Source: Escherichia coli (lineage in GTDB: Bacteria > Pseudomonadota > Gammaproteobacteria > Enterobacterales > Enterobacteriaceae). From it: DNA of 64,000 bases. Numbering within the stretch: position 1 is the first letter of the stretch; each line of letters opens with the position of its first letter. The translations under genes and the position numbers were made by a program. The DNA lies in assembly GCF_030013205.1 (NCBI RefSeq), contig NZ_CP122648.1. One strand, written 5' to 3'. This document shows positions 49,575 to 49,619 of this stretch, in pieces. Below the pieces are notes generated by a model. It searched no databases. It was given only the letters and a program-made list of their open reading frames with translations, and had not been told where the DNA came from.

Positions 49575-49619
49575 TAGCCCCTTTTCAGACGACATAGTCA
49601 ATGCCGAAAAAGGGGCTAA
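49575..49619 (-). terminator. Long hairpin (12-bp perfect stem, 21-nt loop) downstream of tehB; probable tehAB terminator
   Basis: ttagcccctttt ... aaaaggggctaa inverted repeat, A/T-rich flank. Confidence 0.4.

Follow-up and report, generated by a model that had tools for sequence, protein, structure and literature searches.

The closest described relatives of the element reported here are the stem-loops with which Dar & Sorek (2018) characterized the steady-state 3' ends of Rho-dependent E. coli transcripts, these ends lying just after stable stem-loops that carry no U-tract, with C in excess of G downstream and with trimming by PNPase and RNase II (PMC6061677). The same authors proposed that terminators can switch type through their U content (PMC6061677). 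Two other classes invite comparison, namely the canonical intrinsic terminators, in which a U-tract abuts the stem of a G+C-cored hairpin, and the REP/BIME extragenic palindromes, which act as 3' stabilisers of mRNA.

In the present study, we examined a hairpin located downstream of tehB in a window of Escherichia coli DNA (the whole stretch that was analysed, 64 kb). Like the stem-loops of Dar & Sorek, it is a stable post-coding structure followed by no U-rich tract and by a mild excess of C over G; unlike them, whose 3' ends and trimming have been described, it is here a structure predicted from sequence, and it is longer than is typical of that class (13 + 6 bp with a bulge) and conserved in its interior sequence. 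With the canonical intrinsic terminators it shares a G+C-cored hairpin past the stop codon on the sense strand, and true terminators occupy the same slot in related genera, but here AAAAAA comes before any U and the terminator score is strongly negative. With REP/BIME it shares the character of an intergenic palindrome that could block 3' exonucleases, whereas those elements exist in many dispersed copies and this one is single-copy and lacks the REP consensus. Real, conserved and unannotated as it is, the hairpin falls into a class that is well described; the biology is ordinary, and no new question is opened by it. Its main value is one of annotation, in that E. coli tehAB is without a canonical terminator, its 3' boundary being probably set by a conserved hairpin that has no U-tract.

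The hairpin in the tehB-ydcL spacer

The minus strand encodes tehA (51470-50370), tehB (50373-49780) and ydcL (49477-48809), with 302 bp between tehB and ydcL. This spacer bears no feature in the RefSeq annotation, is 100% identical in strains 7/2 and APEC E12053, and was found in 5,412 of 5,426 complete E. coli genomes. A first-pass annotation, made from the letters of the window, had described a hairpin after tehB in a spacer of about 300 bp, and an inverted-repeat search located it there: a left arm at 49574-49585 (TTAGCCCCTTTT) and a right arm at 49608-49619 (AAAAGGGGCTAA) are 100% complementary over 12 bp, the whole element spanning 46 nt (49574-49619) and beginning 160 nt past the tehB stop. 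The perfect 12-bp stem was thus correctly reported, with a start one position off (49575 instead of 49574), and 22 nt rather than the 21 nt given for the loop separate the arms. The 64-kb window has 5 sites with a perfect inverted repeat of at least 12 bp (loop 3-40 nt), where 100 dinucleotide-preserving shuffles give 0.11 on average, so that the repeat exceeds chance.

When folded as tehB-sense (minus-strand) RNA, the stem-loop (UUAGCCCCUUUUUCGGCAUUGACUAUGUCGUCUGAAAAGGGGCUAA; 49574..49619) reaches a dG of -24.4 kcal/mol with z = -6.4 to -7.0, a value that 0 of 200 shuffles equal. Since the G-U pairs of the sense RNA turn into A-C mismatches on the antisense (plus) strand, the fold there is limited to -19.3 to -19.9 kcal/mol. 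In the outer helix, the 5' arm (49608..49619, UUAGCCCCUUUU) pairs with the 3' arm (49574..49585, AAAAGGGGCUAA), and a 13th pair, U49607-G49586, is added at its inner end. The core of this helix, GCCCCUUUU, shows no variation in Escherichia, and one pair of the helix (alignment columns 12/57) is U-A in the window and U-G in K-12, the other species of the genus having C-G. Beyond the 13th pair, 6 further pairs form an inner helix (49590..49606), in which CGGCAU (49606-49601) meets AUGUCG (49595-49590) with one G-U pair, leaving a 3-nt bulge, UCU (49587-49589), and a 5-nt apical loop, UGACU. What had been described as an atypically large loop is therefore indeed 22 nt of sequence between the arms, but on the sense strand it is largely paired. 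Apical loops of intrinsic terminators measure ~3-8 nt. The inner helix, and with it the apical loop of 5 nt, is specific to E. coli, other Escherichia species being able to form UGAC/GUCA instead. The interior sequence CAUUGACUAU is invariant across the genus, and its ATTGACT is repeated immediately 5' of the stem.

Downstream of the stem, on the same strand, comes a tail (49558..49573, AAAAUUUAUUUUCACC) that continues the two closing A of the stem into a run of six A; read from the stem, the sequence is AAAAAAUUUAUUUU, i.e., six A and then UUUAUUUU. A U-rich run begins only 6-7 nt past the stem, and no U-tract adjoins it. Just downstream of the hairpin lies a C-rich, G-poor stretch (49531..49561, minus strand, CACCAACACUUUUUUUGCCACAACAC), which could be rut-like; it is invariant in Escherichia and forms part of the conserved block upstream of ydcL.

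The element was found in about 5,400 of the 5,426 complete E. coli genomes, and a sensitive blastn search (word-size 11), run with the element as a 76-nt sequence, placed it once per genome at the median and never more than twice, which rules out a repeat family. An Rfam scan of 48500-50500 at a permissive threshold returned chance-level matches only, the best overlapping ones scoring 17-20 bits vs gathering scores of 47-70. Several other candidate features of this stretch were discarded. A 37-codon ORF runs across the hairpin on the minus strand (ATG at 49627-49629), and neither its start codon nor its frame is conserved: the ATG reads ACG, AAG or ATA in three of the relatives compared (L003, L004 and L006), the last of which is also out of frame through a 1-nt deletion. 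An attenuator-like switch between the 3' arm and the upstream U-rich segment 49652-49668 was rejected on run lengths and substitutions that do not covary across alleles, a long upstream hairpin (49630-49680) on pairing that is lost across species, and UP-element or sigma-54 readings of the flanking motifs on unsuitable spacings.

Conservation of sequence and of pairing

A scan for TehB with one genome per species yielded 80 loci, 30 of which carry ydcL downstream of tehB. The hairpin is kept in all Escherichia species, with the G+C core of its stem constant throughout the genus. Its identity among six Escherichia lineages is 0.85-0.87, whereas fourfold-degenerate sites in tehB and ydcL reach 0.65-0.67 and the initial 88 nt of spacer after tehB 0.68, a contrast that indicates purifying selection on the hairpin in Escherichia. 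The interior is as conserved as the stems (0.87), which a simple exonuclease barrier would not need, and this hints at an additional, sequence-specific role. Constraint is not confined to the hairpin, and the block that extends from a CRP-like site to ydcL is constrained throughout (0.80-0.96).

Within Escherichia alone, covariation is not significant, 48-161 of 500 shuffles reaching the observed value. The spacers of Citrobacter and Salmonella are homologous to that of Escherichia, having in common GATGATTG, TTCGG(C/A)AT, AAATTT(G/A)T and the promoter block; the motif AAAUUU(G/A)U, related to the tail, also follows the hairpin in both of these genera. In each of the two, a hairpin built of other stem letters occupies the columns that hold the Escherichia hairpin in the alignment. 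When 14 sequences from Escherichia, Citrobacter and Salmonella were aligned with MAFFT on sequence only, the helix was made of identical column pairs in all three genera, and 5 of the 11 core pairs, four of them consecutive, have changed on both sides. Double-changed cells number 19, compared with 6.3 +/- 1.9 in shuffles (0 of 500 reach 19), the covariation score is 0.43 vs at most 0.20 for slid controls, and RNAalifold independently predicts the same helix. Conservation with compensatory changes is thus read directly from the alignment, and since these amount to one or two evolutionary events, the support that they lend to a structure common to the genera is good, not overwhelming.

As to strand, the sense fold is the more stable one in 12 of 13 Escherichia alleles, the exception being L005 (-19.4 vs -20.4), and the homologous hairpins of Salmonella fold at -13.6 and -24.4 kcal/mol in sense vs -6.3 and -10.6 in antisense, again because of G-U pairs; in Citrobacter, both strands fold about equally well. 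From these comparisons we conclude that the hairpin represents a conserved RNA structure of the tehB-sense transcript. Additionally, one strain, E. coli ET210 (L086, NZ_CP100987.1, ~300-360), has an IS1 copy that interrupts the 3' arm following GGGG, with ydcL no longer adjacent; judged from its sequence, this insertion is a natural knockout of the hairpin structure.

The end of tehAB and the start of ydcL

The first-pass annotation considered the hairpin to be probably the tehAB terminator. Place and strand bear this out, since a stable G+C-rich stem-loop does form on the sense RNA downstream of the gene; an intrinsic mechanism is not supported, since the U-rich tract of ~7-8 nt expected immediately 3' of the stem is absent, and a consensus terminator scan of 49300-49900 did not call the hairpin. 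Likewise, a pattern scan for canonical terminators on the minus strand of the Escherichia spacer found none anywhere. A tail-plus-hairpin score of the d'Aubenton-Carafa type put Escherichia at a d of ~-57, Citrobacter at -56 and Salmonella at -71; by the same formula, the T-score of the Escherichia tail is 0.49, and the compact terminators that follow tehB elsewhere reach +24 (Yokenella), +12 (Atlantibacter) and +30 (Pseudocitrobacter). In these last three genera the same slot is occupied by canonical terminators with stem and U-tract, and the locus offers a clean comparative case of a terminator slot furnished with a U-tract in some enteric genera and with none in others. The absence of a U-tract is common to Escherichia, Citrobacter and Salmonella, and, being found in three genera, it looks maintained and not like recent decay. 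The hairpin is, then, not a canonical intrinsic terminator, and with no adjacent U-tract it cannot act as an efficient self-contained one; the earlier interpretation was right on place and strand and probably wrong on mechanism.

The same annotation had named a lack of transcript 3' ends at this position as what would speak against a terminator, and one Term-seq data set lists none. Adams et al. 2021 give, in their complete Term-seq tables, neither a 3' end nor a Rho-termination region for tehA, tehB or ydcL, and no entry at 1,502,100-1,502,699 (MG1655 coordinates; spacer position estimated). This silence is weak negative evidence, as low expression of tehAB could hide a 3' end. No 3' end or start site for the locus appeared in PMC7815308, PMC12207403 or PMC6131387, text searches likewise returned nothing, and no bicyclomycin effect at the hairpin is reported in the data examined.

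Which gene the hairpin belongs to can be judged from its position in other genomes. In Citrobacter, in Salmonella and in Escherichia sp. MOD1-EC7003 it lies at most 45 nt past the tehB stop. In the last of these (L002, 3094-3269), the spacer is only 174 nt long and lacks its initial ~128 nt, CRP-like site included. The hairpin and the promoter block are intact there despite the lost 128 nt. By its placement in these sequences, the hairpin goes with the end of tehB. A candidate promoter for ydcL, on the other hand, is the extended -10-like TGCTATAAC (49513..49521, minus strand), which is kept, as such or as TGCTATTAT, in every genus with ydcL, including Buttiauxella, although another gene there separates tehB from ydcL. 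A further motif, TTTTTGCCACAACA, recurs in Kluyvera, Trabulsiella and Yokenella, and together with TGCTATAAC or TGCTATTAT it tracks ydcL in every genus, even with a gene between tehB and ydcL. In addition, an RpoS-holoenzyme SELEX peak has been listed in the tehB>ydcL spacer (PMC5493296). TGCTATAAC is thus probably the ydcL promoter, bounding the transcription unit of the hairpin, and this evidence of ownership sets the hairpin between the end of the tehAB unit and the own promoter of ydcL.

The block at 49496-49557 (minus strand), upstream of ydcL, is near-invariant in Escherichia (identity 0.96) and contains TTTTTTTGCCACAACAC, TGCTATAAC (extended -10-like with C at -13, sigma-S-like) and an Escherichia-specific TATAAT. 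TTTTTTTGCCACAACAC and TGCTATAAC are found again in every ydcL-bearing genus, always 23 nt apart; such a spacing is unfit for a -35/-10 pair, so that TTGCCACAACA may instead be an activator site.

Further upstream, at 49676-49691, lies a perfect CRP consensus core, TGTGA-N6-TCACA (TGTGATTAATTTCACA), the sole one in the 64-kb window where 0.06 are expected. It is found in every Escherichia lineage with a long spacer (identity 0.94) and is absent from other genera and from Escherichia sp. MOD1-EC7003. A promoter served by this site was looked for at proper distances and none was found. On the plus strand, a sigma-70-like promoter, TTCACA-16-TATGCT (49686-49713), has its -35 inside the CRP-like site, and a terminator-like hairpin, GCGTGGGGAATTTTCACGC followed by GCTTTGTTCT (49744-49772), stands just before the tehB stop; on their sequences, the two could delimit a short antisense RNA.

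Competing readings of the hairpin

The explanation that we tentatively prefer, and which we hold to be plausible if somewhat short of probable, is that the hairpin is a U-tract-less 3'-UTR stem-loop that ends a Rho-dependent tehAB transcript, protects the mRNA and separates it from ydcL. We infer the participation of Rho, the trimming by exonucleases and the insulation of ydcL as follows. RNA polymerase leaving tehB would run through the hairpin and would be halted in the untranslated C-rich, G-poor stretch beyond it, by Rho and/or by inefficient hairpin-assisted release; 3'-to-5' exonucleases would then trim the RNA to the base of the stem, giving the mature, protected 3' end of the tehAB mRNA, and ydcL would be transcribed from its own conserved promoter ~55 nt further on. 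A stable stem-loop with no U-rich sequence after it, the C-rich and G-poor composition of 49580-49521 (C 9-12 vs G 3-6 per 40 nt) and the pattern among genera all appear to fit the class of Dar & Sorek, and the last of these, with a U-tract in some genera and none in Escherichia, Citrobacter and Salmonella, fits their terminator-switching idea. Against the Rho model, the C-rich stretch is short for a rut site, only ~35-60 nt, and overlaps the conserved ydcL promoter block.

That tehAB nonetheless ends at a weak or atypical intrinsic terminator, using the distal UUUAUUUU, would agree with the strand and the position after tehB, with the strength of the stem, with the U-rich run that starts 6-7 nt beyond it, and with the canonical terminators in the same slot of Yokenella, Atlantibacter, Pseudocitrobacter and Trabulsiella. 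We regard it as unlikely, since six A come directly after the stem, the scanner is silent, the tail score is 0.49 and the d ~-57, where true terminators reach +12 to +30, three genera alike are without a U-tract and no Term-seq 3' end is listed. The constraint from the CRP-like site to ydcL raises another thought, that the hairpin could belong to the regulatory region of ydcL instead, either within the mRNA-stabilising 5' leader of an upstream, possibly CRP-dependent second promoter or as a protein-binding site at the DNA level. It accords with the continuity of the constrained block, from the CRP consensus at 49676-49691 (identity 0.94) through the hairpin to ydcL, next to tehB-adjacent sequence that is neutral, and with the invariance of CAUUGACUAU and the ATTGACT repeated just 5' of the stem. 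Yet a promoter dependent on CRP, with the hairpin in its 5' leader, was rejected: neither strand has an acceptable -10 at -41.5, -61.5, -72.5, -82.5 or -92.5 from the centre of the site, and no credible one was seen on the minus strand at distances of class I or class II; the hairpin is present near the tehB stop, without a CRP site, in Citrobacter, Salmonella and Escherichia sp. MOD1-EC7003; and stem letters that change across genera with pairing kept, together with strand-specific G-U pairs, argue for an RNA structure and not for a protein operator, so that this reading seems to us quite unlikely.

A dedicated regulatory RNA element, i.e., a binding site for a protein, for RNase III or for an sRNA, could be envisaged from a hairpin that has been U-tract-less since before the split of Escherichia, Citrobacter and Salmonella and whose loop is invariant in Escherichia; we consider this very unlikely. 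If true, the element would set the read-through of tehAB into ydcL or would yield a stable 3'-UTR fragment, and a connection with the CRP-like site, which lies 65 nt upstream and is peculiar to Escherichia, could exist in that genus. Transcription in the opposite sense, giving a plus-strand RNA antisense to tehB and ydcL, is suggested by Ssr15, an sRNA candidate predicted in Shigella flexneri and assigned to the opposite strand of the SF1779/tehB spacer (<- -> <-, 297 nt) (PMC4782007), and by the promoter-like site at 49686-49713 and the terminator-like hairpin at 49744-49762 on the plus strand. However, Ssr15 is a computational prediction that is not marked as validated by RT-PCR (PMC4782007), the plus-strand fold of the hairpin is less stable, G-U there becoming A-C, no Rfam match was obtained, and the promoter-like site lies downstream of the hairpin, so that a transcript from there would exclude it, all of which makes such an RNA highly improbable as an account of the hairpin. 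Equally remote is a chance palindrome or a functionless relic: the covariation within Escherichia that fails to reach significance and the one strain, ET210, with IS1 inside the 3' arm would suit it, but 0.11 such repeats are expected per window, about 5,400 of 5,426 genomes retain the element, conservation is clearly above the neutral baseline, and three genera preserve the structure with different sequence.

Further observations concern the neighbourhood of ydcL. A second perfect inverted repeat, with 14-bp arms and 20 nt between them, lies at 47546-47593 in the divergent spacer of ydcN(sutR) and ydcO, and with the palindrome CGTTATAACG inside each arm it looks like two operator sites, possibly for SutR. 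Relative to the intact gene of strain 7/2, ydcO (plus strand) lacks 1 nt in a run of T at ~47889 and reads as two ORFs, 47546-47911 and 47950-48774; either the gene is a frameshifted pseudogene or the homopolymer was missequenced. Finally, the spacer between ydcL and ydcO (48775-48808), empty in the window (34 bp), holds IS609 (insQ/tnpA) in the K-12-like strain OV2 and IS200C in strain 7/2 (L001 and L087 compared), and on this sequence comparison it is a recurrent insertion site of the IS200/IS605 family.
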